DNA of 64,000 bases from Candidatus Latescibacterota bacterium. Its GTDB lineage: Bacteria > Latescibacterota > CBDEFO01. Of the stretch, positions 14,613 through 49,074 are shown one piece after another; position 1 is the stretch's first letter, and every line of letters starts with the position of its first letter. The notes beneath the pieces are model-generated. The model was not told the DNA's origin and searched no databases. It worked only from the letters and a program-made list of their open reading frames with translations. The translations under genes and the position numbers were made by a program. The stretch covers positions 2,080,001-2,144,000 of the forward strand of contig OZ252149.1 of NCBI GenBank assembly GCA_965248755.1, written 5' to 3'.

Positions 14613-14643
14613 ACTACTTTACTTGAGGAGGAAGATTGCCGTA

Positions 14644-22068: not shown

Positions 22069-23076
22069 CTATTTCACTCTTGAGATCAACTCTTGAGTAA
22101 ACTCAGTCGTGCTCAAATTTCCCCCCAGGTCGCGAGTACTTTTCCCCTCCTTCAGAAGATCCCAAAGGCAGTCCTTTACAGTATTGGCGGTCTGGACTTC
22201 ATGCAGATGCTCAATGAGCATCGTTAAAGCTAAAAAGGCTGCCGTAGGATTTGCAACGTCCTTTCCCGCTATATCAGGAGCTGTCCCTCCCACAGGATCG
22301 AACATAGCAAAACGCACGCGCCCTTTGCTGTCAAAGGCATACGACCCGCTTGCCCCAAGCCCAATTGAGCCCACAAGCCCGCACGCCATATCGGATAGAA
22401 AATCTCCGTATTCGTTGGGGACAACTATAACATCGAAGTCCTGGGGATTCAGGATAATCTCGGCTAAAAGGGCATCGAAAAGTTCAACTCTATATTCCAC
22501 ATCGGGATAGTCTTTGGCCACGTCCGCCACTACCTTTTGAAAGAGGCCATCTGTGGCTTTCTGGATAGTATACTTAGAGGACGATGTCACTGTTTTCCCT
22601 GTCTTCCGCGCCAGTTCAAAAGCATAGATCGCAGCCTTTCTGCAGGGATCCTTTTCGATGATCCTGATTGAGACGGCGCCATCTTTTCCTATCAATATTC
22701 CGGGGTCTTCGTACGTCCCTCCCGTCGCCACCCGTATAACATCCAGCTTTAGCGCCTTTTTGAAATTGCTCTGCACTCCGGGGATCGTAGCCACCGGGCG
22801 ATGGATCAGGCTGAAGTCGAACATCCGCCTCAAGACAACGTTAGGGCTTTTCTTTTGTGTTATCGTCGGATATTTTAGAGCCACTTTCGTCATTTTTATA
22901 GAGTCGTGGGCTCTGTCATATATCTTTCTGTCCTCCTGCTCTCGCCTTTCTACACTCAGATCCACAGGGAAAAACTTCAGTTCCACAGGTAAAGCGTCTG
23001 ATAACGTTTGGACTGCTCGTCTCAGTTCATCCGATATACCGTCTCCCAGGAACTCCGTAACCTGATGAGTTATCAT
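22069..23076 (-). CDS. Isocitrate/isopropylmalate dehydrogenase family protein
   Basis: GDGI, PNEYGDFLSD, GTAPDIAGKDVANP, TRDLGG. Confidence 0.9.
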   Translation of the reverse strand: MITHQVTEFLGDGISDELRRAVQTLSDALPVELKFFPVDLSVERREQEDRKIYDRAHDSIKMTKVALKYPTITQKKSPNVVLRRMFDFSLIHRPVATIPGVQSNFKKALKLDVIRVATGGTYEDPGILIGKDGAVSIRIIEKDPCRKAAIYAFELARKTGKTVTSSSKYTIQKATDGLFQKVVADVAKDYPDVEYRVELFDALLAEIILNPQDFDVIVVPNEYGDFLSDMACGLVGSIGLGASGSYAFDSKGRVRFAMFDPVGGTAPDIAGKDVANPTAAFLALTMLIEHLHEVQTANTVKDCLWDLLKEGKSTRDLGGNLSTTEFTQELISRVK

Positions 23077-23675: not shown

Positions 23676-24339
23676 CACACATAAACCCAAATTGAAAATA
23701 TGTAGCGCCTGAACTCTTATAACTTAACAGCTGTTGGGGATGTCCCTCCACAGAGGAAGCACAACTCGGCTTAAAGTTCTGAGTAGCCGAGAAGTCCCAT
23801 CCTACGAAGAAATTCACTTTGAAGTTTCCCCCCCGAAGTTCCTGCTGATCACACTTGCCGGACCATAAACTGTCAGCGTCTTAAACCTTAAGTAGTAGTA
23901 AACCATGGCTCTTGGAGCACTACTGTCGCCCTCGATTGGGCGATACGCTCTGCAAAGAGGAACCCCTTTTCCGCCTCACTCGGAAACGACACGCCCTTTG
24001 CTTCAGAAGTCACCGGACGTATTTTATATATTCCCCGAAAAGAACGTGCACCCACATCTCGTACAGCCTTCGTTAAAGAACAGTACCAAGAAAGACTCTA
24101 CTTCATGCAAATTAAAGAGGACAAGCTAGAAAGTCAAGCAAAAAAGCTAACTAGACGAAACAAACAGAAAGATATATCTATCGAATAATCGTCCGGTAAA
24201 GGCACATGATATGCACTCTTGACATAGTTAGAGAGTCGAGAGTCGAGAGTCAAGATTGGGAAGTTAAAAAGTTGAGGGTCGAGGTTTTCTGTGCGTTCGT
24301 GTTGGGCGGCTATTTGTAAAGTGGTTTTGAAGTCTTTGT

Positions 24340-24920
24340 AGCTATTATGTCTTTGGGTATTGAACAGCCATTGATAGGTTTGGAGTTTTAGACAGAGGTT
24401 GGAACGGTTGATAGTCTTGATGGTGTCGTAGAATTCATATTCGATTAGGCCGTGGGCGCGTTCTACATCGGATTGGTGGGTAGTTGCTCCAGGTGGGATG
24501 CGTTTATGTTTTACTCCTTGTCGTTCGATAAGGATGGTAAAGAGGGTCTTTTTGAGGGCATCCTTCTGTATTGACGAATTGGCTGCCGTTGTCGGTTTGG
24601 ATCTTTCGTGGATAGACCTTGTGGTCTTCCAGGTGTTGGAGTAATGCTTCGGCGAAGATGCAGGAGTTGATGAGGGTCTGTTCGTCTGCCAGGCTTACAA
24701 AAAGAGCCCCTGTTTTGACGTCTCTGGCAGTATACTGGAACATAGGGAGTTGGGCACCTGTTTTGTAGTGTTGTTTCAGGTAGTTGGGGATGTCGCACAG
24801 ATGTTTGACATCGATCTGGATATGTTCATAGGGACGTAATTTCTTCTCGCACTGGTAAGCCAGCACTTTTCTTTTCCACTTTCGTTTACGTCTTTTAAAG
24901 AGATCATGCTTATCTAGTTA
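24340..24920 (-). mobile_element. IS481-like (rve/DDE) transposase remnant, frameshifted
   Basis: IQIDVKHL, QYTARD, IQTDNGSQF; in another frame IPPGATTHQSDVERAHGLIEYEFY. Confidence 0.75.
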
Positions 24921-25330
24921 GCCTAAGCAGTCGGTTTGGAAGGTATTTGACTGACTTGAACATTGTGTGTTCGGAGGAAACCTGGTAGATATGGGTATCC
25001 CAAACAAGCATAGACCTGTCGGAACTCTACAAAAAGCTATTTGATTTTCTTTGGGAAGGCATATTAAGGTTTATTGGTGCTTTGGTGTCATTTGGTAGAC
25101 TCTTGATGGATCGATCTTGTCGATAGCAGTTGAGCTACTTTCTGACGCTCTGGACCACCTTTTTCGCAGCTCGACAGGATTACGATTAAGAACAAGAACA
25201 TCGCTATAAGTGATTGCATTCTCCATGGTATCTACCCTCCTTTTTTCAGTCCTCACCTAAATATAGGCAAAATTATCCCGTGAGGGTGGATACCATGTGC
25301 CTTTACTCTTCTAAAATCACAATTTCTCAC

Positions 25331-25359
25331 TTGACTTAAACCCACAGCTATCTTATCTT
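25331..25359 (+). promoter_or_regulatory. Sigma70-like promoter of the nuo cluster
   Basis: TTGACT-17 bp-TATCTT. Confidence 0.55.
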
Positions 25360-25380
25360 TTAAACCTTAACCCTTTTCCC

Positions 25381-25470
25381 CAAAAAAGTTCTTCGACCAC
25401 TTCGCCACTTCGTGCCCCCTGCAAAAAGGGGGTCGCAGCGACGCACGCAGTGCCCACGCTACCTTTGGGG
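25381..25470 (+). repeat. ~90-bp structured element, left copy of the inverted repeat flanking the nuo cluster
   Basis: Aligns to the reverse complement of 33934-34023 (roughly 80% by eye; identical run cgacgcacgcagtgccca). Confidence 0.85.
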
Positions 25471-25523
25471 AGGACCTTCAAAGCCCAAAATTACATTCTA
25501 TAAAGTTAAGGAGCTAGAAAGCC

Positions 25524-25907
25524 ATGCTCACAGATTATGCAGGTGTACTTATCTTCCTTACGGTCGGGACACTCTTTATTTTGGTAAGTCTGACTTTAGC
25601 CAGAATCTTCCGCGCTAATGATCCGACACCTGAAAAGCTGACGCCCTACGAGTGCGGCGAGGAACCTGAGGGCGGAGCCTGGATACAGTTCAACATAAGG
25701 TTTTACATTATAGCTTTGATTTTCATAATATTCGACGTAGAGATCGTCTTCCTCTTCCCCTGGGCTGTGGTCTACAAGAGTCTGGGCTTTTTCGCCCTTG
25801 TGGAGATGATGATCTTTGTATCTATACTCCTTGTGGGGCTTGCCTATGTCTGGAAGAAAGGTGACCTTGAATGGGTCAAGCCTCAGTCGCCTTATGGAAA
25901 CAAGTAG
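25524..25907 (+). CDS. nuoA: NADH-quinone oxidoreductase subunit A
   Basis: PYECGE, FYIIALIFIIFDVE..FLFPWA. Confidence 0.95.
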   Translation: MLTDYAGVLIFLTVGTLFILVSLTLARIFRANDPTPEKLTPYECGEEPEGGAWIQFNIRFYIIALIFIIFDVEIVFLFPWAVVYKSLGFFALVEMMIFVSILLVGLAYVWKKGDLEWVKPQSPYGNK

Positions 25908-25915
25908 ACAGTAGC

Positions 25916-25936
25916 CCACGATAGATTCAATCGGGG
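25916..25936. repeat. Short palindromic element between nuoA and nuoH
   Basis: ccacgatagattcaatcgggg. Confidence 0.75.
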
Positions 25937-25989
25937 GTAGAAAGAGGCGACACTTCCTATCCCTTTACCGTTTACTAATGTAGAGAAAT

Positions 25990-27093
25990 ATGGAATCCTT
26001 TGTAGACACGGTCATCGACTTAGTATCCCCTTTATCCCAACTTTCCCGGGATTGGGTGTATCTGGGGCTTACTCTGCAGGATTGGGTATATCTGGGGCTT
26101 ACTCTGGTCGGATGCGCCTCCGTTTTGGGATTTATCTCGGTCTTTGCCCTATTTGCTATCTGGCTGGAGCGCAAGGTCTCAGCCCATATGCAGGACAGAC
26201 TCGGACCCATGAGGGTCGGGGGATGGCACGGTTGGGCGCAGACTATCGCTGACGGGATTAAACTCTTTTTGAAAGAGGACATCATCCCGGCTATGGCGGA
26301 CAGAAAGCTCTTCACCTTAGCTCCTCTTGTCGTATTTGTCGGCTCATTCGCGGTCTTTGTGGCCGTTCCCTTCGGGGATAGATTGATAGTTCGGGATCTG
26401 AACATAGGGATCTTTTATATCCTTGCGATATCCTCCCTGGTGGTTATTGGGGTTGTAATGGCAGGTTGGTCATCTAACAACAAGTGGTCGCTTTTGGGGG
26501 CTATGCGCTCTGCCGCCCAGGTAGTAAGTTACGAAATACCCGTTGCGCTTGCCCTTTTATCCGTCATAATGATAGTCGGAAGCTTGAGTATGCAGGACAT
26601 AGTCAAAGACCAGAGTGGCGGATTTTTGAACTGGTTCATCTTCAGGAACCCGTTCACTTTTTTGGCCTTCTTCATATACTTTGTGGCCTCGCTTTCTGAG
26701 GTCAACCGGACCCCTTTTGACATCCCAGAAGCCGAGTCAGAATTGGTTGCAGGATACCACACGGAATACAGCGGAATGAGATTTTCCTTCTTTTTTATAG
26801 CCGAATACGCAAACATGTTCGCCGTCAGCGCCATAGCGACCACGATCTTTTTGGGAGGATGGCAAGCGCCCTGGGGAGACCCCATAGTCGCGGATGGCGC
26901 CATCTGGTTTATAGGCAAAGCCACCTTCCTTGTCTTTGTGCAGATGTGGATTAGGTGGACACTCCCAAGACTCAGAGTAGATCAACTTATGTACATCGGA
27001 TGGAAAGTCCTTACGCCATTTTCGTTTGCCAATATAATTGGAGTAGGATTATGGATGTACATCTTCGACTTGTTTGATAAAGTGCAAGGATGA
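25990..27093 (+). CDS. nuoH: NADH-quinone oxidoreductase subunit H
   Basis: [47 protein letters not shown]. Confidence 0.96.
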
Positions 27094-27094
27094 G

Positions 27095-27610
27095 ATGACC
27101 GCCTCAGATATAATATTCTACATCTTCGCTTTCATAACCGTCGGTTCGGGGGCCGTCGTAGTCTTTTCAAAAAGGATAGTCTATTCGGCCTTTGCCCTCC
27201 TCTTTACCTTCTTCGGAGTTGCAGGACTCTACATCTTACTTTCCGCTGACTTCCTCGCCGCCACACAGGTCATAATCTACGTAGGAGGCATACTGGTCCT
27301 CCTTTTATTCGGAGTTATGATGACCCACAGAGTATATGACGTCCAGATCAGACAGCAGAGGATCAATTTTCTACCTGGAATGTTAGTGGTAATCTTCGTC
27401 TTCGCCATGCTGCTGACAGTTATCTTCAACAAAGATTCCTGGATGCCTCCCGTCGAGAAGGAGATTACGTCTACGACGTCACAGATCGGAAACATGCTTA
27501 TGACGGACTTCCTACTCCCGTTTGAAGTAGCCTCGGTTCTTTTGTTGATCGCACTTATGGGGGCTGCACTTATAGCGCGAAGAGAAAAAGGCGAGGGAGG
27601 GAAAAGATGA
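27095..27610 (+). CDS. nuoJ: NADH-quinone oxidoreductase subunit J
   Basis: QVIIYVGGI.VL.LF.VM, LPFEVASVLLL. Confidence 0.93.
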   Translation: MTASDIIFYIFAFITVGSGAVVVFSKRIVYSAFALLFTFFGVAGLYILLSADFLAATQVIIYVGGILVLLLFGVMMTHRVYDVQIRQQRINFLPGMLVVIFVFAMLLTVIFNKDSWMPPVEKEITSTTSQIGNMLMTDFLLPFEVASVLLLIALMGAALIARREKGEGGKR

Positions 27611-27912
27611 TAACTTTGGAACACTACCTTGTAGTGAGCGCAATTCTCTTTTGCCTTGGAGCCTTCGGCGTAATAACCAGAAGGAACGCTGTAAGCATCC
27701 TTATGGGGATAGAGCTTATCTTAAACTCTGCCAATATAAATTTTGTAGCTTTTGCTCGCTATACCGCGCAGGGACTCGAAGGGCAGGTGGTGGCGATCTT
27801 CGTGATCACATTGGCCGCCGCCGAAGCCGCAGTAGCATTAGCGATTGTGCTGAACATATACAGGAGCTTCCACATTATAGATGTAGACGAGGCGGACGCC
27901 CTGAAAGAGTGA
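27607..27912 (+). CDS. nuoK: NADH-quinone oxidoreductase subunit K
   Basis: RRNA..ILMGIELILN, AAAEAAV. Confidence 0.95.
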   Translation: MITLEHYLVVSAILFCLGAFGVITRRNAVSILMGIELILNSANINFVAFARYTAQGLEGQVVAIFVITLAAAEAAVALAIVLNIYRSFHIIDVDEADALKE

Positions 27913-27946
27913 CTTGTGGCAGGTTTATGCAGACTGTATAATCACA

Positions 27947-28737
27947 GTTAGGGCGACTCGCACGCACATGCACAACGCAATATGAGGAGAAATATGCTTG
28001 ATCGAATCTCAGACGGGCGCACCGACTTGGTGTTCGATTATCTATCAGAAGGCCATGCCGCCAACTCCGTGGACAGAAATGGAGTGTCTCTAATCAAATG
28101 GTGCGCTTATTACGGCGATGTCAGTGCAATACGATTCCTGCTCGCCAACGGTGAATCACTCGAGTCGTTCGGAGAAAACCTCGACCTCAACGGCGCTGCG
28201 TTTCAAGGGCACTGGCAACTATGCCAGTTTCTCATCGAAAATGGCGCTGACGTAAATCATCCTCTGCCGGATACAGGAGAGACGCCACTGCACGCGGCCT
28301 TATGCAAAGCCAATCGCCCTGCATACAACCACGTCATCAAAATTCTACTCGCCAATGGTGCGAATCCCAATTGCGTGACAAAGGAATCCGTTGAAACGGG
28401 TTGCTTCATGCGAGATTGCAGAACGAAAGCCGAAACACCCCTCCATCGTGCCGCCGCCTTTGGCACCGAAGAGGCCATCCAACTTCTTCTGGATGCAGGC
28501 GCGACCATCGATGCCAAAGACATGAATGGAGATTCTCCGATCACCTGGGCCAGTTGGCACCTGCGCCCGGACTTCATTCTCAAGAAACTCTGTTACGGTG
28601 ACTTTTCCATTCATCCAGATAGAATAGCGCGCTCCATAAGCTACCGCGGCACCGGCTGGAGTCCCATGGAATCCTTTCTACTTGGGGAACCACATGTCTG
28701 ACACTGTTTGTCGGCCTAACAAGCGCATGAAGCTGAC
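27947..28737 (+). mobile_element. Orphan integron-type gene cassette with truncated attC
   Basis: 5' GTTAGGGCGAC (27947-27957) is 10/11 complementary to GTCGGCCTAAC (28710-28720); GCCTAAC-AAGCG-CATGAAGCTGAC resembles an attC left arm. Confidence 0.65.
27994..28701 (+). CDS. Ankyrin repeat protein
   Basis: GETPLHAA, ETPLHRAA, LLDAGA.IDAKD..GDSP; AGGAG RBS. Confidence 0.92.
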   Translation: MLDRISDGRTDLVFDYLSEGHAANSVDRNGVSLIKWCAYYGDVSAIRFLLANGESLESFGENLDLNGAAFQGHWQLCQFLIENGADVNHPLPDTGETPLHAALCKANRPAYNHVIKILLANGANPNCVTKESVETGCFMRDCRTKAETPLHRAAAFGTEEAIQLLLDAGATIDAKDMNGDSPITWASWHLRPDFILKKLCYGDFSIHPDRIARSISYRGTGWSPMESFLLGEPHV

Positions 28738-28779
28738 AGGAGATTTTGAGAGTTATATGAGAACACAGCGGGAAACACA

Positions 28780-30801
28780 ATGATAGAATTGGCCTGTATA
28801 GTACTGCTTTTACCTCTCTTGGCCTTCACCATACAGATATTTGTGGGCAAAAGACTCCCAAGAGGGGGAGACTGGCTCCCCACTGGGGCTATGTTTCTTT
28901 GTCTGGGACTCTCCGTAGTAATCTTGGCCAAAGTGTTAGCGGCGTACGATCCCGACTATAAAGAGACCTTTTCCTTTATGTGGATCGATATCGGCGACTT
29001 CAGAGTTGAAGGGGGCATCCTCTTGGACAACGTCACGGCCATTATGCTTGTGGTCGTGACTCTGGTAAGTGCTCTTGTGCACCTCTACTCTATAGGCTAC
29101 ATGCACGATGATCCACTCTACTCTCGCTTCTTCGCGTACTTGGGTCTATTCTCTTTTTCGATGTTAGGGCTTGTGCTCTCTGATAATTTTCTTTTCTTAT
29201 ACTGCTTCTGGGAGCTTGTGGGGCTTACCTCATATCTCTTGATAGGCTTCTGGTTCGAACGCCCTGCCGCCGCCTCTGCCGGAAAGAAAGCCTTTATCGT
29301 TACAAGGATAGGCGACGTGGGGATGTTCATAGGGATAATGATAATCTTCAGTCAGATCGGTAAATTCGGCTATCAGGGCGTATTCGACAGCGTGGCACAG
29401 GGAGAACTCAGCGGAACGCTTTTGACCGTTGCCGGTGTTTGCATCTTCTTCGGAGCAGTCGGGAAATCCGCGCAGTTTCCGCTCCACGTCTGGCTCCCGG
29501 ATGCGATGGAGGGTCCCACTCCCGTTAGTGCGCTTATACACGCCGCAACGATGGTCGCAGCAGGCGTCTATCTTGTGGTCAGGGTGTTTCCATTCCTCTC
29601 ACCCGATGCACTCACGTTCATCGCATATACAGGAGTCATAACAGCCTTCCTCGGCGCGACCATAGCGATAGCCCAAAACGACATAAAGCGCGTCCTTGCC
29701 TACTCCACCATAAGCCAACTTGGATATATGATGCTCGGACTCGGCGTCGGAGCATATGTAGCAGGCTTCTTTCATCTGGTAACACACGCGGCATTTAAGG
29801 CATGCCTCTTCCTCTGCTCAGGCTCTGTCATCCACGCCCTCGGCACGCAGGATATGAGAGAGATGGGCGGGCTCAAAGATAAGATGCCCATAACTTTCAA
29901 GACGATGCTCATCGCCACGTTAGCAATTTCCGGCGTCCCTTTGACATCGGGGTTTTTAAGCAAAGACGCCATCCTTGCGGGAAGTTTGGGATTCGGCTTC
30001 TTCGAGCAACCCCGGCACATGCTGTTGCCGCTATTAGGATTTATCACCGCCGGAATGACGGCATTCTATATGTTCAGACTGATATTTATGACCTTCTACG
30101 GCCAACCCAGAGACAGAGAAAAATATGAGCACGCACACGAATCTCCAAAGTCGATGACGATACCTTTGGTAGTCCTTTCGTCTTTGACTTTTTTCTTTTT
30201 CTACACATTTAACTTCAACCCCTTCTCCACATCTGGCTGGTTCTATGATATAATCCATAAGCCCGCATCGAGCGTCCACCAAGCTGTGGGAACAGTGGAT
30301 GCAGGCTATGTCCTCGCCTCATCGGAAGCCCACGACCCTGCGCACATTCCCGCCCTGATGCTCTCCCTCCTTATAGCAGCAGGGGGCATATATCTTGCTT
30401 ATTTGACCTATTACAAGGGAAGAATCTCGGCGGACGCTTGGGCTGACAGATTCAGCTTCACCTATAGACTCATATATAACAAATGGTACTTCGATGAACT
30501 TTATCACTTTATAGTCATCCGACCTACACTTGCCATCAGATCGTTTTTAGGATGGTTCGACCAGAAGGTCATCGACGGCGTCGTCAACGGAGCCGCCCGC
30601 ATCACCACGTTCATTTCATTCCTTGAGGGACGCTTCGACAATATAGTTATAGACGGACTCGTCAACCAGACTGCAGGAGCTGTAATAGGGGCAGGATCTA
30701 TCTTCAGAAAGATACAGACAGGAAGGGTACAGACATATATTATGTTCGCCCTTGTGGGAGCGATTATCATATTTTTGATACGTGTGGCTGTAGAAAAATA
30801 A
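28780..30801 (+). CDS. nuoL: NADH-quinone oxidoreductase subunit L
   Basis: GKSAQFPLHVWLPDAMEGPTPVSALIHAATMV. Confidence 0.96.
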   Translation: MIELACIVLLLPLLAFTIQIFVGKRLPRGGDWLPTGAMFLCLGLSVVILAKVLAAYDPDYKETFSFMWIDIGDFRVEGGILLDNVTAIMLVVVTLVSALVHLYSIGYMHDDPLYSRFFAYLGLFSFSMLGLVLSDNFLFLYCFWELVGLTSYLLIGFWFERPAAASAGKKAFIVTRIGDVGMFIGIMIIFSQIGKFGYQGVFDSVAQGELSGTLLTVAGVCIFFGAVGKSAQFPLHVWLPDAMEGPTPVSALIHAATMVAAGVYLVVRVFPFLSPDALTFIAYTGVITAFLGATIAIAQNDIKRVLAYSTISQLGYMMLGLGVGAYVAGFFHLVTHAAFKACLFLCSGSVIHALGTQDMREMGGLKDKMPITFKTMLIATLAISGVPLTSGFLSKDAILAGSLGFGFFEQPRHMLLPLLGFITAGMTAFYMFRLIFMTFYGQPRDREKYEHAHESPKSMTIPLVVLSSLTFFFFYTFNFNPFSTSGWFYDIIHKPASSVHQAVGTVDAGYVLASSEAHDPAHIPALMLSLLIAAGGIYLAYLTYYKGRISADAWADRFSFTYRLIYNKWYFDELYHFIVIRPTLAIRSFLGWFDQKVIDGVVNGAARITTFISFLEGRFDNIVIDGLVNQTAGAVIGAGSIFRKIQTGRVQTYIMFALVGAIIIFLIRVAVEK

Positions 30802-30841
30802 CCGCGAACTATATATCCAAACTCAGGAGGAACATTAGCTG

Positions 30842-32317
30842 ATGCCGATACTTACACCCATAGTATTCGTCCCGCTGCTGGGAGCTTTGATAATCCTGCT
30901 GATCCCTAAGCAAAACGAAAGGGCCATTAAGATCGTAGCCCTCATAGCCACAGCGGCATGCGTCCTCCTTGCTTTCAATCTATACAATTCGTTTGACCGA
31001 AGTACGACTGAAATGCAGTTTGTCGAACGGCACAGTTGGATCGAATCCTTCAATATAGAATATTTTCTGGGGATAGATGGACTCTCAGTCACGATGGTCC
31101 TTCTGACCGCCCTTTTATCCTTCCTATGCATCCCCGTATCGTGGAAGATTAGCAAAGGTATAAAGGGCTACTTTGCGCTCTTTCTGCTCTTGGAGACCGG
31201 GATGCAGGGCGTATTCTGTTCTCTGGACTTCTTTTTGTTCTACGTATTCTGGGAGGTAATGCTTTTGCCGATGTACTTCCTCATAGGGGTATGGGGCGGC
31301 CCGCGGCGCGAATATGCGGCCATCAAGTTTTTCCTCTACACCCTTTTAGGGAGCGTCGTTCTCTTGTTGGCGATGCTGGCGTTCTACTTCACGACGGAGC
31401 CTCACACGTTCGATATGACGGCACTCATGACCCACAGATACGGCTTCACGTTCCAGATTGCGGTCTATGTAGCTATGTTTATCGGTTTTGCCATTAAGGT
31501 TCCGATATTTCCTTTCCATACGTGGCTCCCCGATGCGCACGTGGAGGCCCCGACAGCCGTAAGCGTCATTTTAGCTGGCGTCCTTTTGAAGATGGGGACT
31601 TACGGCATCCTGCGTTTTAACTTTCAGATGCTCCCAGACGCTACTAAGTACTTCGCAATTCCACTGGCTATACTCGGAGTCATAAACATAATCTACGGGG
31701 CGCTGTGTGCGATGGCACAAACGGATCTCAAGAAGTTGGTGGCATATTCGAGCATAAGCCATATGGGATTCGTACTCCTGGGTGCCGCTTCGTTGACCTC
31801 GGCCGGGATAAACGGAGCCGTCCTTCAGATGTTCAATCACGGCACTACTACGGCCATGCTCTTCTTGCTCGTCGGCGTCATCTACGACAGAGCGCACCAC
31901 AGAGACATTAATGGATTCGGAGGTCTTGGCTCTAAGATGCCCATCTACACGGGCATCACATCATTGGCTTTCTTCGCTTCGCTGGGGCTTCCGGGTCTTT
32001 CCAGCTTCATAAGCGAAGTTTTATGTTTCCTGGGCGCCTTCCAAAAATACTGGGCAGATCCCATGTACAGATGGATAGTGATAATACCTACTCTCGGAGT
32101 AGTCCTGACAGCGGGATATTTCCTCTGGACGTTTCAGAGAATGTTTCTGGGACCTTTGAATCCTAAATATGAAGACCTCCCCGAAATAAACAAAAGAGAG
32201 ATCTTCAGCCTGGCTCCATTAGGGGCCATAGTCATATTCCTCGGCGTCTATCCGATGCCCGTTTTGAACCTTATGAGAACATCTTTAAACAATATCATAA
32301 AGATGGTTGGACCCTGA
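30842..32317 (+). CDS. nuoM: NADH-quinone oxidoreductase subunit M
   Basis: FHTWLPDAHVEAPT, LKMGTYG, AYSSISHMG. Confidence 0.96.
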   Translation: MPILTPIVFVPLLGALIILLIPKQNERAIKIVALIATAACVLLAFNLYNSFDRSTTEMQFVERHSWIESFNIEYFLGIDGLSVTMVLLTALLSFLCIPVSWKISKGIKGYFALFLLLETGMQGVFCSLDFFLFYVFWEVMLLPMYFLIGVWGGPRREYAAIKFFLYTLLGSVVLLLAMLAFYFTTEPHTFDMTALMTHRYGFTFQIAVYVAMFIGFAIKVPIFPFHTWLPDAHVEAPTAVSVILAGVLLKMGTYGILRFNFQMLPDATKYFAIPLAILGVINIIYGALCAMAQTDLKKLVAYSSISHMGFVLLGAASLTSAGINGAVLQMFNHGTTTAMLFLLVGVIYDRAHHRDINGFGGLGSKMPIYTGITSLAFFASLGLPGLSSFISEVLCFLGAFQKYWADPMYRWIVIIPTLGVVLTAGYFLWTFQRMFLGPLNPKYEDLPEINKREIFSLAPLGAIVIFLGVYPMPVLNLMRTSLNNIIKMVGP

Positions 32318-32457
32318 AAAGGTAGACTTGGCACCGTCTTCGTTCCCTATAAAACAGTGAACGTATATAGAGACCAACCTGTGCGTTCACCCATTTGGGA
32401 AAAACAAAGGGAGAAGGATGTGCCTTACCTACTGTCTACTTCGAAAGCGAGAGCTTC

Positions 32458-33930
32458 GTGTTAGAAGAAATTATCAGAAGTAACATAGACAGTCTCAAAT
32501 ATATCTATCCTGAGATCGTCGTCGTACTCACGCTGGTTACTGTGATAATAACGGACCTGCTCCTTAAAAGGAGTAGACAGGCCCCCGTGGCGATTGTTTC
32601 CACGATAGGGCTTATCATAGCCCTCGTTTTGATCGGTCAGCTCTACTCTGAGGAGAGTCGTTCTCTCTTTGCCGGAATGATGGCACTCGATCCATTTTCC
32701 CTCTTTTTTAAGGCTGTCTTTTGCCTTGCCACCATAATAATAACGCTCTTTTCCATTACGTCTCCTGAGGTGCCAGAAGAACGCTCCGGTGAGTATTATG
32801 CTCTCTTGCTGGGGATTGTCCTCGGTGGTTTTATGATGGCCTCCGCGACCAATCTCTTGATGATGTACCTTTCGCTTGAACTTGTCAGCATTCCCTCATA
32901 TGTGCTTGCTTGCTTCCTCAAAAACGACCGCCGCTCTTCAGAGGCCGGGCTTAAATACTCAATCTACGGAGGCGTATCCTCAGGAGCAATGATTTACGGT
33001 ATGTCTCTGCTCTACGGGGCTACGGGTTCAATTAATATTTATCAGATTAGCCAGAGCATAAGTCAGTCACAACATTACGATTTAACGCTTGTGGTATCCA
33101 TCATCCTCATAATGGCCGGACTCGGATACAAGATAGCCTCAGTGCCCTTCCACTTTTGGACTCCCGACGTCTATGAAGGAGCACCCACACCTGTAACAGC
33201 CTATTTTTCAATCGTTCCCAAGGCCGCGGGATTTGCGATGCTCTCCAGATTCTTCTACTCCGGTGTATCCACATCAGAATGGATGCCGCAGATAGACTGG
33301 CCCTATCTTTTGGCCATAATATCCGCTGCCACCATGACGCTCGGCAATTTTGTGGCTATCTGGCAGGACAACTTAAAGAGGCTTCTTGCCTACTCAAGTA
33401 TAGCGCACGCAGGATATATCCTTATGGGGGTTGTAATGCTCTCCCCTGATGGGCTCAAAGCCGTTATGTTCTACATCGCAGTCTACCTGTTTATGAATTT
33501 AGGAGCCTTTCTGGTCGTCATAGCTATCTCCCAAAAGCTCAACACAGAAGACATAAAGGGCTACAGCGGTCTTGGATGGAGATCGCCCTTTGTCGCCGTC
33601 GCCATGACAATCTTCCTCTTCTCACTTACCGGGCTTCCACCTACAGGCGGATTTGTGGGGAAATTTTACCTCTTTGCCGCAGTCATAAAGGGCAAATACT
33701 ACTGGCTCGCCATCGTAGGTGTCCTCAACAGTGTCGTCTCTTTGTACTACTACGCAAGGATAGTAAAGGTTATGTTCTTGGAGGATGCCCTAACAGACGA
33801 AAAAGTGGTAATATCTACTTTGCATACAGTCCTTCTAACTCTGTTGGTTATACCTACGGTTCTGTTGGGAGTTTACTTTGTCCCTCTTGTCAAGCTGGCC
33901 GATAAATCTTTAGAGCTTTTGGGATACTAA
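32458..33930 (+). CDS. nuoN: NADH-quinone oxidoreductase subunit N
   Basis: VPFHFWTPDVYEGAP, KRLLAYSSIAHAGY; start uncertain (GTG 32458 chosen). Confidence 0.95.
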   Translation: MLEEIIRSNIDSLKYIYPEIVVVLTLVTVIITDLLLKRSRQAPVAIVSTIGLIIALVLIGQLYSEESRSLFAGMMALDPFSLFFKAVFCLATIIITLFSITSPEVPEERSGEYYALLLGIVLGGFMMASATNLLMMYLSLELVSIPSYVLACFLKNDRRSSEAGLKYSIYGGVSSGAMIYGMSLLYGATGSINIYQISQSISQSQHYDLTLVVSIILIMAGLGYKIASVPFHFWTPDVYEGAPTPVTAYFSIVPKAAGFAMLSRFFYSGVSTSEWMPQIDWPYLLAIISAATMTLGNFVAIWQDNLKRLLAYSSIAHAGYILMGVVMLSPDGLKAVMFYIAVYLFMNLGAFLVVIAISQKLNTEDIKGYSGLGWRSPFVAVAMTIFLFSLTGLPPTGGFVGKFYLFAAVIKGKYYWLAIVGVLNSVVSLYYYARIVKVMFLEDALTDEKVVISTLHTVLLTLLVIPTVLLGVYFVPLVKLADKSLELLGY

Positions 33931-33933
33931 TAA

Positions 33934-34023
33934 CCCCAAGAAAGTGGTCTGGGCACTGCGTGCGTCGATGCCAACCCTTTTTGCAAAGGGTACGAAGTGG
34001 TTAAGTGGTCGGAGAGCTTCTTG
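33934..34023 (-). repeat. ~90-bp structured element, right inverted copy
   Basis: Starts 4 bp after the nuoN stop; inverted homolog of 25381-25470. Confidence 0.85.
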
Positions 34024-34125
34024 AAAAAGAAGATAATGGGTAGAGTCCGACTGTAATGAATCCTTGACATTTCTTGTGAGTTACAGCATTTTGGTTGTAG
34101 TTTATCAAAGTTACTCGGAACGATT

Positions 34126-34201
<76 letters not shown>

Positions 34202-34289
34202 ATAATTCCATCATAATCAATAAGTTGTGATGGATTTCTTCTTGCCGTTAATATTTAAGTTAATGGAGTAGGAAAGCTGAACTTGGTAC

Positions 34290-35110
34290 GTTGAGAATTT
34301 GTTGATCTGTAGCGATATTGGGGACATGAAAAATTGACCTCGCTGCAGAGGAAGAACATTTTGAGTACTATAAGACTGGTCGGCTGCGTTGTCGTAAGTG
34401 TAAATTGATCCCCAATAGACTCAATTGGGGATTGACCAGAAAACTGGCCACTACCTTTCTGAGAGAAGAGTCGAATTACTCCCCCCGATAGATTCAATCG
34501 GGGGTGCGATACCAGGTTCCATACACAAGGAAGACCATGGAACGCTGGTATAGGATCATCAGAAAGGCAATCTACCATCACACTTTCAAGGAGTTTGAAC
34601 CCCTAGAAGGTGAACTTGAGATGGATGAAACTCTCTTCGGTGGTAGGAGACCTGGTAAAAGAGGTTGGGGTTCCGAAGGCAAACAGATAGTCTTTGGCAT
34701 CTATCAGAGAAAGGGTAAGGTGTTGACCTTTGCTGTCCCCTCAAGGAGTCGTGACTCACTACTGCCTCTTATTACCTAACACAGCAGACCAGGGAGCTTG
34801 TATTACACCGATAGTTGGATAGCCTACGCCTCGCTTTCTATCAGCGGCAACCGCCTGGTAGTGCCAAAAGAGAAGGGCATAGCGAAGGGAAAAGATCACC
34901 TCAATGGGGTGGAAGGCTTCTGGTCGTATGCCAAACACTGGCTCCATCAATATCAAGGCGTTGACAAAAGCTTCTTCCACCTTTACCTTAAAGAGGTAGA
35001 GTGGCGTTTCAACCACCGCCACGAAAATCTACTTCCTCTTATGAGAAAGCTACTCGATCAACAGGCTGTAAGTGACATGAGTTAGTGGAACTTTAGTTAT
35101 GCATTACCCT
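34290..35110 (+). mobile_element. IS1595-family transposase pseudogene
   Basis: Degenerate Zn ribbon (*PRC...CRKC), GELEMDETLFGG..GKRGWG, in-frame TAA at 34777-34779, YTD, HLNGVEGFWS, YLKE.EWRFN; two palindromic elements inside (34410-34430, 34483-34503); boundaries approximate. Confidence 0.85.
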
Positions 35111-35368
35111 AATCAAAAATTCTTTTCGGGTGATGACAATGTCCCGGCAGTAAACTCGGACCACCCCCTTCGCACCCTGCTATCGGCGTGGGCGGCAGAA
35201 ATGGGGAATTCTGGTTAACATGGATAGGCCACTATGACAACACAAAAAGACTCATCCTTTGACGTTGAGAGCAAGAGTAAACAAAGCGTTCAGCTTGGGA
35301 GCCCGAGCCAACGGTCTGCACTTCGATTCACGAAAGACGGACTCACTCCTGACCAGTCCCAATAACCG

Positions 35369-36376
35369 GTGGATCGTCAGCCAATAAACGAGTACGCAGA
35401 GTTGAAACAGTTGGTTAGACAACGCGGACTCTTGGATAAGCAACTCGCTTACTACACCTATAAACTACTCTCAACATTAGGGTTGCTGGCCATCAGCCTT
35501 ACAATCCTTGCACTCGTAGATACCCTCTGGGTGCAGCTCATAAATGCTGGTTTTCTGGCCTTCGTCTTCGCCCAGTTAGGTTTCATCGGCCACGATGCAG
35601 GCCATAGGCAGATCTTTGGGTCGGACCGCAACAATGAAATCGCAGGCCTTGCCGTCTGCTTCTTGTTGGCTTTTGAGTGTAGCTGGTGGATCGATAAGCA
35701 CAATCGCCATCACAACAATCCCAATCACCTGGCTCTGGACCCAGATGCAGACTTTCCCGTTCTGGCTTTCACGAAGGAACAGGCCCTTAAAAAGAAGGGG
35801 TTTTTCAGGTTCATCGTAAAATACCAGGCCTTCCTCTTTTACCCGATGTTGCTTCTCGAGGGACTGGGCCTGCGACTAGCAGGGATTCAATACGTATTTG
35901 CCAACAAAATCAAATATCCTGTAGCAGAACCACTGCTCATGATGTGCCACTTCGCGGTCTACCTTGGCTTCTTATTCTTTTTCTTAAGTCCTTGGCACGC
36001 CGTGTTGTTTATCATAATTAACCAAGCGGTATTGGGTCTGATTGTGGGGTCGGTATTTGCGCCCAATCACAAAGGTATGCTTATGGTGGGCAAAAACGAA
36101 GAGATGGACTTCCTCCGGCGTCAGGTGCTAACTGCTCGAAATGTAAAAGGCCATCCTCTTACTGATTTCTGGTATGGGTGTCTCAACTATCAGATTGAGC
36201 ATCACTTGTTCCCCAACATGCCTCGCAATAATCTGAAGGAAACGCAGGAAATTGCAAAAGCGTTCTGTAAGGAACACTCCATCCCGTATCACGAGACAGG
36301 AATCGTTCAATCTGTGAAGGAAATCCTGCAGCATTTGCACCAGGAAAGCGCGCCATTACGGGAGAGAAAGGCATAA
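35369..36376 (+). CDS. Membrane fatty acid desaturase (front-end type, no cytochrome b5 domain)
   Basis: HDAGH, HNRHH and QIEHHLFP His boxes. Confidence 0.9.
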   Translation: MDRQPINEYAELKQLVRQRGLLDKQLAYYTYKLLSTLGLLAISLTILALVDTLWVQLINAGFLAFVFAQLGFIGHDAGHRQIFGSDRNNEIAGLAVCFLLAFECSWWIDKHNRHHNNPNHLALDPDADFPVLAFTKEQALKKKGFFRFIVKYQAFLFYPMLLLEGLGLRLAGIQYVFANKIKYPVAEPLLMMCHFAVYLGFLFFFLSPWHAVLFIIINQAVLGLIVGSVFAPNHKGMLMVGKNEEMDFLRRQVLTARNVKGHPLTDFWYGCLNYQIEHHLFPNMPRNNLKETQEIAKAFCKEHSIPYHETGIVQSVKEILQHLHQESAPLRERKA

Positions 36377-36768
36377 CATTCCGTCTAATGTTCTTCTAGC
36401 CAGAGAGCCTATGGAGAGATGCGATAGTACAGACAAGAGGCGGCAATCTATTCGAGCATGAAATGAAAAATCCGGGTTGAAAGCCAAGGTTGAAGCGCCT
36501 TGCGTGATGCGCTTTGTGGCGGAGCAGGGGTGCACCGCTGCGGCCCCTGTTTGCTGGGGGACGAAGTGCCAGAAAACCGCGAAGCGGCGAAGTGGGCGAA
36601 GCAATCTGACTTAGGTTTCCTCTCCCTGTGTGTGGGCTACTATTTAGGATCCCTATAAACTTGTGCCTACTATTTTGACGCGATACTTGGCTTTTACCTG
36701 AAGGGAGGGAACCCTGATGTCAAACTCCTTTAATCACGGGCAGTCAGACCGTTTAATCTCCAAATGGG

Positions 36769-38910
36769 GTGATAAAAATGTCTTGGTGTGCAAGAATGGG
36801 TAGTATTTTATGTAAGCTGGCAGGGTTGATTCTGCTTGCTTTGATGGTCACCGCCATCTTTTTAGATGACGCCACCTGTGCGACTATCTACAGGATCGGA
36901 AAGCCCTTTTCGGATGCAGAAAGGACCAGTCTCGAGGGGATAGGGATTGAGGTCCAGCAGTTCAGCTGGGAAGTTTATGAGTCGGTGAAGAACCTGGATG
37001 TGGACTCTCTGAAGGCGGCACATGGCGGCTCAATTGAACCCAAGTTTATCAGGCCGGGTGAGAGCATAGCCGCAACGGCTCTGGACAGAGGAGGATGGAT
37101 AGCCGAAGGTACCCAAGACGATGAGAGGCTAAGCTTCAAAGAGGGATATGAAATCGAAGGCAACGTTGCGAATAACATGATAGACGGGGATCCGACCACG
37201 GCTTTTGTGTGGCCTAGGCCGGCGCCCCCGGGTTGGAAAAGAAACGGCGGAAGATGTCATAAAGCGCCTCACCGGATAGTTATTAACTTAGGCGGACAAT
37301 TTGTCGTCGACAAAGTAAGATTCTACCCTCGTGAAGGAATATCCCCTGATGGTGAGGAATATAAGACTCACTTCATAGAGGACTACCAATTGGGTACCAG
37401 TCAAGGCCGCAGGCCGCAGGATTTCGTCGAGACCTACTTGTGTCGAGGATCAGCTTTCATCCCGAGCTTCCGACAGTTTGCCCAGTACACTCACCCAGGA
37501 ACCGATCTTGACCAATCTGGAGGTCCATCTGGCAAAAGTGAAGACCATGATGATGTTGAAAATATATTTACTGAAGTTATAATACCGCTTGACCCTCCGG
37601 AGAAAATCTCTTATGTCGCGTTGTTGATCTGGCTCCCAATTGTGAAGACGATAGAGATCGCCGAGTTTGAGGTCTTTGGGCCGGAGGGCTTTATAGAAGA
37701 AGCCGCTTATATAGCTGACGTAATTGAGTTGGACGACATCGCCAGTTTCGGCGAGCTCACCTGGTCAGGGAGTCGTGATCCCAGGGCGGAGGCCAATATC
37801 CGAACCAGGAGCGGGACAGATCCTCAGCCGATTGTTTACTGGATACTCAAAGGTCAGCTGCGAACGCAGGTAGTTTTGCCTTCGACCAATGAGGAAGGAG
37901 AAGAGCTCAGCTTAGAGGAGTACAGAAGTGCTTTCTACAAACTCCCGGAAAATGTTTGGGCTGACTCGACTTACGATACGGAAAACTGGAGCTTCTGGTC
38001 TGCTCCTTACAAGTTTGAAAGTCCGGGAGCACCTATCGTCTCTCCTGGTCCCCGCAAATTCCTTCAGATCGGCGTGGATTTTGCCTCCGAAGTTAACGAT
38101 GGCAGCCGGATCGAGTATTTACAGTTTAAGGCCTCTGTGCCTCCTGCGGCTCGAGAGATAGTAGGTGAGATCTTCCCTACAGAAGTCGAGATAGGGAAGG
38201 TAACACACAAGTTCAGCTATTTTGTCAAGGCAACGATGACAGCTGTGGATAAAGGATTCGACACCTTGGAGATCACCACACCTTATGGGGTTAGTTCGGT
38301 CGATTCGCTAAGTGTAGATGGAATCAATCAGGACGGTTTCACCTGGGTGAAAAAGGCCGACGATTCTGGCTTTGAGGTCACATTACCCAGGAAGTTGGAT
38401 ACAGGAGACAGCGGAGTCATAGTTGAAGTGGTCTTCCAAGCTCCTGTTTTGAGGGAGCGCGGGACCTTTTTTGACGGCAGTGTGTTCGACAGCGCACAGC
38501 CTCACGAAGTTCATCAGAAGATCAAGGCTGGCAACGTGGCAGATGAGATCGAAAGCGATGTCCTTACGGTGATAACGTCTTTGGCCGAATCGATATTGTC
38601 CTCACCAGAGGTCTCTCCAAATCCCTTTACACCGAATGGCGACGGTGTCAATGATGTACTGAACCTATCTTATACCATTTTGAGGCTGACTGCCCCTGTT
38701 CCTGTCTCAATCGATATATACGATCTTTCCGGTGTCTTTATAAAGACAGTCTATTCTGGGAACGACTCCGTAGGACAATACCCCCGGCAATGGGATGGTA
38801 GAGACAGCGAGGATAATCTTGTTCCACCCGGGATATATGTGTATCGCGTATCGGTAGAGGCTCAGGAAGGGGAGGAGACGGCGACAGGGACTGTCTCTGT
38901 CGCCTATTAA
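36769..38910 (+). CDS. Secreted protein, discoidin-like N-terminal region + FlgD-Ig/CHU_C-like C-terminus (paralog 1)
   Basis: Signal peptide; MIDGDPTT, KVRFYPR, EIAEFEVFG; PNPFTPNGDGVND...WDGRD...PPGIYVYRV. Confidence 0.8.
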   Translation: MIKMSWCARMGSILCKLAGLILLALMVTAIFLDDATCATIYRIGKPFSDAERTSLEGIGIEVQQFSWEVYESVKNLDVDSLKAAHGGSIEPKFIRPGESIAATALDRGGWIAEGTQDDERLSFKEGYEIEGNVANNMIDGDPTTAFVWPRPAPPGWKRNGGRCHKAPHRIVINLGGQFVVDKVRFYPREGISPDGEEYKTHFIEDYQLGTSQGRRPQDFVETYLCRGSAFIPSFRQFAQYTHPGTDLDQSGGPSGKSEDHDDVENIFTEVIIPLDPPEKISYVALLIWLPIVKTIEIAEFEVFGPEGFIEEAAYIADVIELDDIASFGELTWSGSRDPRAEANIRTRSGTDPQPIVYWILKGQLRTQVVLPSTNEEGEELSLEEYRSAFYKLPENVWADSTYDTENWSFWSAPYKFESPGAPIVSPGPRKFLQIGVDFASEVNDGSRIEYLQFKASVPPAAREIVGEIFPTEVEIGKVTHKFSYFVKATMTAVDKGFDTLEITTPYGVSSVDSLSVDGINQDGFTWVKKADDSGFEVTLPRKLDTGDSGVIVEVVFQAPVLRERGTFFDGSVFDSAQPHEVHQKIKAGNVADEIESDVLTVITSLAESILSSPEVSPNPFTPNGDGVNDVLNLSYTILRLTAPVPVSIDIYDLSGVFIKTVYSGNDSVGQYPRQWDGRDSEDNLVPPGIYVYRVSVEAQEGEETATGTVSVAY

Positions 38911-39036
38911 TTACACTATTACCGGTGGTCAAGCAAGAATTCCCCCGTTCAAAGTGTTAAGGATTCGTTATATCAGCAGAAATTAGATAGATAGCAGTAT
39001 CCAAATCAGGTGTATGTTAGTGAAAGATTGCATAAA
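38911..39036. repeat. Duplicated 3' flank (second copy at 41243-41368)
   Basis: ttcaaagtgttaaggattcgttatatc...tccaaatcaggtgtatgttagt present in both. Confidence 0.8.
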
Positions 39037-39109
39037 GGATTCATGTCAGCCAGCTCTTTATGAAGTTCTGTCAATCAATAAAGGGCAAACTAATTAACAT
39101 TCTTAGTGG

Positions 39110-41242
39110 GTGATGACAATGTCCTGGTTTACAAGAAATAGCAGTGTTCTATCAAAGCTGACAGGATTGATTCTTCTTGCTTTGGTAGTCATCAGTATCT
39201 TTTCAGATGAAGCCACCTGTGCGACTATCTACAGGATCGGAAGGCCGTTTTCACAAGCAGAGAGAGACAGTCTCGAGAGGATAGGGATTGAGGTCCAGCA
39301 GTTCAGCTGGGAAGTTTATGAGTCGGTGCAGAGTCTCGATGTGGACTCTCTGAAAGCGGCGGATGGCGGCTCAATTGAACCCAAGTTTATCAGGGAGGGT
39401 GAGAGCATAGCCGCAACGGCTCTGGACAGAGGAGGATGGATAGCCGAAGGTACCCAATCCGATGAGACGCTAGGCACCCTTGAGAGATATAAAATCCAAG
39501 GCAACATTGGGAACAACATGATAGATGGGGATCCGACCACGGCTTTTGTGTGGCCTTGGCCGCCGCCCCCGGGGGAGCAAAGAGGCGGCGCAAGATGTCA
39601 TAATGCGCCTCACCGGATAGTTATTTACTTAGGCGGACTATTTGTCGTCGATAAAGTAAGATTCTACACTCGTGAAGGAATATCCCCTGAGGGTGAGGAA
39701 TATGAGACTCACTTCATAGAGGACTATGAATTGGGTACCAGCCTTGGCCGCAGGCCGCAGGATTTCTTCGAGAGCTACTTGTGTCGAGGATCAGCTTACA
39801 TCCCGAGCTTCCGACAGTTTGCCAAGTACACTCTCTCACGCACTAATACGCATGAGCCGATTGAAAATATATTTTCTGAAGTTATAATACCGCTTGATCC
39901 TCCGGAGAAAATCTCTTATGTCGCGTTGTTGATCTATACCCCAAATTTGAAGACGATAGAGATCGCCGAGTTTGAGGTCTTAGGCTTACGAGAGAGCTTT
40001 ATAGAAGAATCCGCTTATATAGCTGACATAATTGAGTTGGACGACATCGCCAGTTTCGGCGAGATCACCTGGTCGGGGAGTCGTGATCCCAGGGCGGAGG
40101 CTAATATCCGAACCAGGAGCGGGACAGATCCTCAGCCGATTGTTTACTCGATACTCAAAGGTCCGCTGCTAACGCAGGTAGTTTTGCCTTCGACCGATCA
40201 GAAAGGAGAAGAGCTCAGCTTAGAGGAGTACAGAAGTGACTTCTACAAACTCCCGGATAATGTTCGGGCTGACTCGACTTACGATACGGAAAACTGGAGC
40301 TTCTGGTCTGCTCCTTACAAGTTTGAAAGTCCGGGAGCACCTATCGTCTCTCCTGGTCCCCGCAAATTCTTTCAGATCGGCGTGGATTTTGCCTCCGAAG
40401 TTAACGATGGCAGCCGGATCGAGTATTTACAGTTTAAGGCCTCTGTGCCTCCTGCGGCGCGAGAGATAGTTGGTGAGATCTTCCCTGCGGAAGTCGAGAT
40501 AGGGAAGGTAACACACAAGTTCAGCTATTTTGTCAAGGCAACGATGACAGCTGTGGATAAAGGATTCGACAGTGTTGAGATCACCACACCTTATAGGTTT
40601 AGTTCGGTGGATTCGCTAAGAGTAGATGGCATCAATCAGGACGGTTTCGACTTGAAGGTAAAGGAGGACAGCTTAGGCTTTGAGGTCACATTACCTACGG
40701 ATCCGGAAACTGGACTTCCTAGGAAGTTGGATACAGGAGATAGCGGAGTCATAGTTGAAGTGGTCTTCCAAGCTCCTGTTTTGAGGGAGCGCGGGACCTT
40801 TTTTGACGGCAGGGTGTTCGTCAAGGCAGAGCCTCACGAAGTTCGTCAGAGGATCAAGCCTGGCAACGTTGCAGATGAGATCGAAAGCGATGTCCTTACC
40901 GTGATAACGTCTTTGGCCGAATCGATATTGTCCTCTCCCCAGGTCTCTCCAAATCCCTTTACACCCAATGGCGATGGGGTCAATGACCTATTGAACATAT
41001 CTTATGCTATTCTGAGGTTGACTGCCCCTGTTCCTGTCTCAATCGATATATACGATCTTTCCGGTGACTTTATAAAGACAGTCTATTCTGGGAACGACTC
41101 CGTAGGACAATATATCCGGCATTGGGATGGGGGAGACAATAAGGATAATCTTGTTCCACCCGGGATATATGTGTATCGCGTATCGGTAGAGGCTCAGGAA
41201 GGGGAGGAGACGGCGACAGGGACTATCTCTGTTGTCTATTAA
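39110..41242 (+). CDS. Secreted FlgD-Ig/CHU_C-like protein (tandem paralog 2)
   Basis: Colinear with and highly similar to 36769-38910. Confidence 0.8.
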   Translation: MMTMSWFTRNSSVLSKLTGLILLALVVISIFSDEATCATIYRIGRPFSQAERDSLERIGIEVQQFSWEVYESVQSLDVDSLKAADGGSIEPKFIREGESIAATALDRGGWIAEGTQSDETLGTLERYKIQGNIGNNMIDGDPTTAFVWPWPPPPGEQRGGARCHNAPHRIVIYLGGLFVVDKVRFYTREGISPEGEEYETHFIEDYELGTSLGRRPQDFFESYLCRGSAYIPSFRQFAKYTLSRTNTHEPIENIFSEVIIPLDPPEKISYVALLIYTPNLKTIEIAEFEVLGLRESFIEESAYIADIIELDDIASFGEITWSGSRDPRAEANIRTRSGTDPQPIVYSILKGPLLTQVVLPSTDQKGEELSLEEYRSDFYKLPDNVRADSTYDTENWSFWSAPYKFESPGAPIVSPGPRKFFQIGVDFASEVNDGSRIEYLQFKASVPPAAREIVGEIFPAEVEIGKVTHKFSYFVKATMTAVDKGFDSVEITTPYRFSSVDSLRVDGINQDGFDLKVKEDSLGFEVTLPTDPETGLPRKLDTGDSGVIVEVVFQAPVLRERGTFFDGRVFVKAEPHEVRQRIKPGNVADEIESDVLTVITSLAESILSSPQVSPNPFTPNGDGVNDLLNISYAILRLTAPVPVSIDIYDLSGDFIKTVYSGNDSVGQYIRHWDGGDNKDNLVPPGIYVYRVSVEAQEGEETATGTISVVY

Positions 41243-41524
41243 TTGCACTATTACCGGTGGTCACGCAAAACTTACCCCCTTCAAAGTGTTAAGGATTCGT
41301 TATATCCACAGAAATTGGATAGATAGCAGTATCCAAATCAGGTGTATGTTAGTCTAATTTTGCATAAACGGTTTATGGGAACTAACTCTTATGGGAGAAA
41401 ATTACTCTATAACGGATCGTAGTTCATCGTATACTCCCCAACGGATGAGGAGGTGGAGCAAAGTATCGGGGATTAGTGGTTATTCCACAACAGTTAATAT
41501 CAATCCTAAAGGGGAATTCTGAAA

Positions 41525-43666: not shown

Positions 43667-43697
43667 ACTCTAGAAAATCTGGGAGACCTTTAGGTGA

Positions 43698-49059: not shown

Positions 49060-49074
49060 CACTTTTTTGGAGGT

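Follow-up and report, generated by a model that had tools for sequence, protein, structure and literature searches.

The nuo genes on contig OZ252149.1 of Candidatus Latescibacterota bacterium (assembly GCA_965248755.1) are bracketed by two copies of an inverted repeat, one in front of nuoA and one behind nuoN. They lie in the stretch of 64,000 bp that was analysed (positions 2,080,001 to 2,144,000 of the contig, here called the window; positions given below are those of the window unless stated otherwise). Very probably, the two sequences belong to a family of hairpin repeats, modular in build and with about 45 copies, that is restricted to the genus, lies between genes and drifts near neutrally, and they owe their inverted placement to two old insertions that took place independently. 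The family has dozens of copies with scattered neighbours, is built from modules, has an orientation bias toward transcription, differs between species by insertions and deletions of the size of modules, and shows no covariation. Since some 45 copies are scattered between unrelated genes, the bracketing of the nuo genes by two old copies of this dispersed modular repeat is most likely incidental.

The repeat pair around the nuo genes

An earlier note on this DNA had described an inverted pair of about 90 bp around the nuo cluster and had offered three explanations: the untranslated regions (UTRs) of one mRNA that pair with each other, the ends of an invertible or mobilisable module, or two copies of a dispersed structured repeat or non-coding RNA (ncRNA). 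The homology of 25381-25470 (+ strand) and 33934-34023 was confirmed, with 73 of 92 aligned columns identical in a reverse-complement alignment. The core of the pair is 84% identical over 74 nt (genome-wide BLAST, E 2.6e-15), and the pair is the longest inverted repeat within the window. Its length had been underestimated, as the homologous unit measures approximately 100–105 nt (Table 1). As described, the second copy starts 4 bp past the stop codon of nuoN (33928-33930), which is followed by a second TAA, the copy running from 33934. The genes enclosed do not make up a whole nuo operon; only nuoA, nuoH, nuoJ, nuoK, nuoL, nuoM and nuoN are present between the copies, together with an ankyrin-repeat open reading frame (ORF).

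The promoter that had been predicted 5' of the first copy was found as a sigma-70-like site (TTGACT-17-TATCTT), which is conserved in a congener. Four sigma-70-like sites were found in the region versus 2.6 expected by chance, so that the site is weak evidence on its own. A third member of the family is present inside the window (Table 1).

A dispersed family in the genome

The genome consists of a single contig of 4.54 Mb, in which copies were sought by BLAST and iterated nhmmer searches. With a cut-off of E<1e-3 the nhmmer profile detected 38 copies, and with E≤0.01 it detected 45; the reversed genome, used as a control, gave no profile match at E<0.1. These scattered copies bear out the dispersed repeat among the three explanations. 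Neighbouring genes were fetched for 40 of the 41 loci that remain after subtraction of three copies in the window and one adjacent match from the 45. They were mutually unrelated, and the sites include spacers within operons for ribosomal, flagellar and lipid genes and for fumarate reductase. The host gaps (gene names inferred from Pfam) include rpsH/rplF, infA/rpsM, fliL/fliM, fliR/flhB, frdB/frdC, pheT/zapB, uppS/cdsA and plsX/fabH. Operons such as rpsH-rplF and fliL-fliM are compact elsewhere, and the presence of several copies in their spacers therefore indicates insertion.

Nearly all copies (43 of 45) were not wholly within a called gene, and four of the 45 were present between convergent genes, showing no enrichment there. 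In co-directional gaps, 28 of 34 copies had the sense of the nuoN copy on the coding strand (p=2e-4); 17 of 32 copies in such gaps started at most 40 nt from a stop codon, a count for which there is no null distribution of distances. The copies were evenly divided over the replichores (19 versus 19), without bias. The nuoN copy is thus typical of the family, and the nuoA copy lies in a divergent gap, where both senses occur.

To define the taxonomic spread, a sequence-only model was built from 26 copies and at most 33 candidates were scored per genome. The model gave 30 matches in this genome and at least 33 in the congener; the 148 further genomes searched in the phylum gave no match. In addition, the family was not found at 80 metagenomic nuoH loci, all of them from distant relatives (54-71% identity, 752 kb in total, many of them short), and viral contigs contained no match to the inner module or to the outer K hairpin described below. 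No listed copy is present at a second nuoN-like cluster near 4.10 Mb of the genome. The earlier note would have given up its bracketing idea if many copies were scattered through the genome and the pair was lacking in close relatives. Scattered copies were indeed found, whereas the pair is missing only beyond the genus, the congener having kept both copies. Literature searches, which are weak evidence of absence, yielded no description of the family, and it is apparently undescribed so far. Its description is a modest addition, that of a repeat family of modular build from a phylum that has been little studied.

Anatomy of the repeat

The copies range in length from 59 to 198 nt. Their outer arms are of two types. 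One is the K-type (a pyrimidine run, CCCCAAAAAGTTCTTCG ... CCTTTTTGGGG), the other the ATTGC/GCAAT stem known from the CGTC-type repetitive extragenic palindromic sequences (REPs). The interior is formed by one or two hairpin modules, at times with nested hairpins of other repeat families. Both nuo copies consist of a K arm, a short inner module and a second K arm, a class that holds 6 of the 45 copies. The K-type copies have imperfect terminal inverted arms of about 10 bp.

Scattered through the genome there is also a minimal form of the K hairpin that has no inner modules, with 40 pattern matches versus 4 in the control. Of its 28 intergenic matches, 20 were oriented toward a downstream gene; as a promoter, its spacing would match no sigma factor known to us. 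The minimal matches were divided over the + strand (30) and the - strand (10) without a replichore pattern.

When sought in the species collection, the outer K hairpin of 27 nt had exact matches in 58 stretches; all but one of these (57) are from Clostridia/Bacillota, mostly Christensenellales. In Christensenellales the exact 27-mer terminates larger variable repeats. It is noteworthy that dispersed repeats of these gut bacteria, which belong to another phylum, have an exact outer hairpin in common with the family. The five Clostridia genomes tested contained 3-13 copies of the 27-mer each, and of 20 loci scanned, 9 had tRNA genes at a distance of up to 1.5 kb. Rfam searches on 20 of the 58 loci of the Clostridia type gave only tRNAs above threshold.

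Comparison with the congener

The congener is about 95% identical across the nuo genes. It has kept both copies, and with respect to the promoter region and tRNA-Phe their orientation is the same. Its 3' copy differs at 3 positions, and its 5' copy has a decayed left arm and approximately 41 extra bases in two inserts. The first insert is a segment that is present in most copies of the family; the second is part of a hairpin that two other loci, one in each species (L036 and L045), contain whole at the corresponding site. The 5' flank of the nuo locus in the congener differs from that in this genome.

For the family as a whole, 30 loci were compared between the two species, up to the second-last one; several gave no joint alignment. 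Nearly all alignable loci hold the element in both species, and one copy of the congener lies within a replaced segment. Substitutions and gaps could be compared at 15 of the 45 loci. The elements differed at 96 of 1668 positions (5.8%), versus 5.0% for other intergenic DNA, 6.3% for third codon positions and 3.8% for coding DNA, and gap columns numbered 221 in the elements versus 38. The divergence of the elements is therefore about neutral and gives no sign of purifying selection.

Secondary structure and the possibility of a functional RNA

The earlier note had proposed that each copy folds as a three-way junction. The minimum free energy fold of the 5' copy does have this shape, but its stability does not exceed that of shuffled sequences (in this sense, z was -0.74 for one nuo copy and +0.15 for the other; over the four strands it ranged from -0.96 to +0.15). 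The covariation that had been seen in one hairpin did not hold up in an alignment of 26 copies, in which the covariation score of the proposed fold was matched by 53 of 500 shuffles and those of two alternative folds by 120 and 344 of 500. In the same alignment the three candidate folds paired 73-74% of the cells, the same as in shuffles, and RNAalifold returned no consensus pairs. A search of 24000-36000 against Rfam (E≤5) revealed only tRNA-Phe and chance matches, none of them at either copy. Covariation, purifying selection and an Rfam family, by which a structured ncRNA or riboswitch would be recognised, are thus all absent from the repeat family, and the ncRNA part of the third explanation found no support.

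The family might still be a functional cis-acting RNA element (a stabiliser, an attenuator or a protein-binding site) that many operons have retained on their coding strand. Its strong orientation bias, the proximity to stop codons and the positions common to the two species would fit such a role, as would the closing stem of the proposed fold, which gave the best single measure of all with 10 two-sided changes versus 6.3 expected (29 of 500 shuffles). However, the bias can equally stem from an insertion preference or from the loss of harmful insertions, the elements have a neutral level of substitution and a heavy load of insertions and deletions, and the mean column identity across the 26 copies is 72%. 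In addition, the neighbours share no function and the family is absent from the other genomes of the phylum. A conserved RNA function is therefore unlikely in our view.

Is the nuo bracket special?

An inverted pair around an operon is to be expected once a genome holds dozens of copies of a repeat, which calls for caution. For the statistics on pairs, 44 copies were placed at random into intergenic gaps. The probability of obtaining one or more inverted pairs was 0.83, and that of obtaining one or more around a run of co-directional genes was 0.58. In the genome there are five adjacent inverted pairs at a distance of at most 10 kb, four of which enclose co-directional genes; two others share the geometry of the nuo pair. 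The nuo pair ranks 15th among 990 pairs of copies. The best match of the nuoA copy is not the nuoN copy (score 87) but a copy at position 1,348,498 of the genome, 757 kb away (score 113).

Several observations weigh against two independent insertions of a once mobile repeat. Both nuo copies persist in the congener, and no clean empty site was present among the loci compared in the two species, because of which mobility is something we infer rather than observe. There was no signal of a target duplication (mean longest common flank word 4.22 versus 4.24 in shuffled sequence, P=0.57, 45 copies), although old decayed copies could hide one, and a cognate mobilising enzyme was not found in the searches described below. 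The gene calls were made with our own codon model. Close pairs were more frequent than expected (10 versus 3.9, P=0.003, half of them direct and half inverted), and the same was true for inverted close pairs (5 versus 1.7, P=0.026) and for those that bracket co-directional genes (4 versus 0.85). Finally, the best match of the nuoN copy is the nuoA copy. We read the excess of close pairs as local clustering; selection for brackets would be the alternative.

In one rival reading, the nuo copies, once repeats, would now be used: the leader and the trailer of a nuo mRNA of about 8.6 kb would pair into a long stem that sets its processing or stability, as in the first explanation of the earlier note. 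Pairing is physically possible according to the duplex energies, since the predicted 5'-3' duplex has -139 kcal/mol, or net -70 kcal/mol after local folds. Both copies would be on one transcript, given the promoter-like site before the first copy and no terminator-like site until past tRNA-Phe, the 5' copy of this genome is colinear with the 3' copy, and two further inverted pairs are arranged in this way around other genes. However, any inverted pair of a repeat family yields such a duplex, and the copy 757 kb away pairs even better (net -79). In the congener the 3' copy has no change that matches the extra bases and the decayed left arm of the 5' copy, and the net duplex is -48; the two species also differ by this same short deletion at a locus unrelated to nuo (L035). 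To judge from the sequence, the stem would also leave the ribosome-binding site of nuoA uncovered. The pairing thus found no evolutionary support, and we regard it as improbable. The same degree of doubt applies to its wider form, in which exapted selfish repeats would loop the 8.6-kb mRNA of the membrane arm of complex I by means of a processing stem of about 80 bp, and in which inverted pairs would be in excess around co-directional genes because other operons use the same device. If true, a bacterial mRNA would here have acquired from repeats a processing stem like that of rRNA, which would be a rare case.

It is even less probable, to a degree that leaves very little room for it, that recombination at the two copies inverts or mobilises a respiratory module. 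The inverted homology is 8.5 kb apart and has an identical run of about 20 nt; such homology could in principle permit rare homologous inversion. However, the orientation in the congener is the same relative to both outer flanks, and its synteny breaks approximately 100 nt upstream of the first copy and past tRNA-Phe, at copies of an insertion sequence (IS) and not at the repeats. We also compared contigs of four sequencing runs (from three studies, with one likely source sample). Contigs of these runs span the nuo copies in the reference orientation, and the joints listed (15 of 44) were all skips without an inversion joint, bearing in mind that contigs drop rare variants. No recombinase was named among the 26 ORFs of the window that were scanned, the promoter lies outside the segment, and the inner modules appear to face opposite to the hairpins of a hairpin-ssn-hairpin unit. 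Of the marks of an invertible segment, the second orientation was thus not seen in the assembled contigs and a recombinase was not found nearby, and the second explanation had no support. In the congener, two copies of one IS (DUF772 and DDE) in direct orientation flank nuoA-N and tRNA-Phe (L031:2892-4292 and 13230-14631).

Origin of the family and known systems

We favour two old insertions of a repeat family that would have spread before the split of the two species. It likely did so as REP/BOX-like selfish hairpin DNA, helped by a single-strand nuclease or a transposase that is not found any more in this genome. A form of about 200 nt is the ancestor that we infer, which likely shrank repeatedly by deletions between short direct repeats, and the likeness of the two nuo copies in this genome would as a result be partly convergent. 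Transcribed copies would form local hairpins that may at most tune mRNA decay or termination, like REPs.

We know of no mobilising enzyme for the K hairpin. This genome contains no Y1 transposase (PF01797), no DUF559 (PF04480) and one GIY-YIG match (PF01541), in a frame of 608 aa. In the five Clostridia genomes with the K hairpin, no gene was flanked by the hairpin. In one Clostridia genome a K hairpin lies 266 nt from an IS200 gene, which was considered as a partner and rejected, as it has its own ends. No IS or transposase with matching ends was found in this genome, where the ends of the IS elements were not compared one by one. The congener does contain a short GIY-YIG gene flanked by ATTCCC hairpins in inverted orientation. 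This intact-looking hairpin-ssn-hairpin unit is part of a duplication of about 440 bp (L300:1410-1770) and is missing at the matching site of this genome. In this genome, approximately 41 candidate copies were found of a TA-bounded miniature inverted-repeat transposable element (MITE) of about 235 bp with terminal inverted repeats of about 20 bp (e.g. at 49396-49628 of the genome). It has two outward-facing ATTGC (CGTC-type) hairpins around nine codons that resemble the start of Ssn, possibly a remnant of an Ssn gene. The GIY-YIG unit of the congener and the Ssn-like codons of the MITE suggest that units of the Ssn type pass through the lineage; none was tied to the K arm.

CGTC-tagged REPs are defined as palindromes of 20-40 bp with a stem of 8-9 bp, a loop of 4-5 nt and an unpaired CGTC-like end tag (Di Nocera et al. 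2013, PMC3733652). Like these, the family is intergenic, dispersed and palindromic and occurs mostly in co-directional gaps near 3' ends. About a quarter of the copies have an ATTGC/GCAAT stem and a GTC end, a probable match to one of the numbered CGTC families; the ATTGC arm had 341 matches in the genome versus 9 in the control. Unlike the REPs so defined, the nuo copies are about 100 nt long, have no CGTC tag and no stem of 8-9 bp with a loop of 4-5 nt, and have a different outer arm and nested modules.

The resemblance to the streptococcal BOX elements lies in the composite build with fixed ends, variable inner modules that are gained and lost between relatives, and predicted stem-loops (Croucher et al. 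2011, PMC3049150). The BOX likeness is one of architecture, and no sequence relation is expected. BOX ends resemble those of ISSpn2 (PMC3049150), whereas no matching IS was found here, and there was no enrichment between convergent genes here. Ssn-related motifs are likewise hairpin repeats that spread in genomes and flank a single-domain GIY-YIG gene (PMC11893778), and the congener has such a unit. However, this genome is without a short GIY-YIG gene, and the unit of the congener has hairpins with an ATTCCC stem and not the arms of the family. With MITEs such as RUP and Correia elements, the family has in common that it is non-coding, about 100-200 nt long and has short imperfect terminal inverted arms; in contrast to MITEs it has no target-site duplication, no uniform length, and no transposase was found with like ends. 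The family thus works like a composite repeat of the REP/BOX type, and the nuo copies themselves fall outside the formal definitions of CGTC-tagged REPs and MITEs.

Other features of the window

Table 1. Positions of the repeat copies and of the genes and elements around them in the window
Feature	Position	Strand	Remarks
Repeat copy 1	25373..25477	+	K-type outer arms, short inner module; in divergent gap, in predicted nuoA leader, ends 47 nt before ATG
Repeat copy 2	33931..34031	-	Built as copy 1; right after stop codon (usual site of the family), reverse form on coding strand
Third copy	36530..36607	-	Truncated, left arm of CGTC-REP type; 2.5 kb past copy 2
Predicted sigma-70 promoter of nuoA	25331..25359	+	Outside the repeat; conserved in the congener
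nuoA	25524..25907	+	NF005839, E 2e-42, below curated cut-off
nuoH	25990..27093	+	Protein family search
nuoJ and nuoK	27074..27912	+	Protein family search
Ankyrin-repeat ORF	27994..28701	+	In variable slot between nuoK and nuoL
nuoL, nuoM and nuoN	28780..33930	+	Protein family search
tRNA-Phe(GAA)	34126..34198	+	95 nt past copy 2
Hairpin of 21-23 nt, other repeat family	25914..25936		In gap between nuoA and nuoH; 928 pattern matches genome-wide; absent in the congener

The positions of the features are listed in Table 1. The hairpin between nuoA and nuoH provides a clean presence/absence site for its own repeat family. Within the nuo genes, 27907-28774 is a variable slot between nuoK and nuoL. 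Six sites elsewhere in the genome resemble the one that precedes the ankyrin ORF in this slot and end in GTTAGGG; the half site after the ORF is one that we take to be attC-like. In the congener and in two other sequencing runs the slot contains 645 other bases, with a gene pair that by eye is toxin-antitoxin-like and had no Pfam hit.

Upstream of the nuo promoter, a decayed remnant of a transposase with an integrase core (rve, E 7e-5) is present at 24300-25240. Further upstream, at 22125-22986, contigs of two sequencing runs skip 860 bases of a gene like isocitrate/isopropylmalate dehydrogenase. Downstream, 36769-54406 contains a series of paralogous ORFs of 590-820 aa with long direct repeats, some of which have C-terminal domains like those of FlgD or the type IX secretion system (T9SS).

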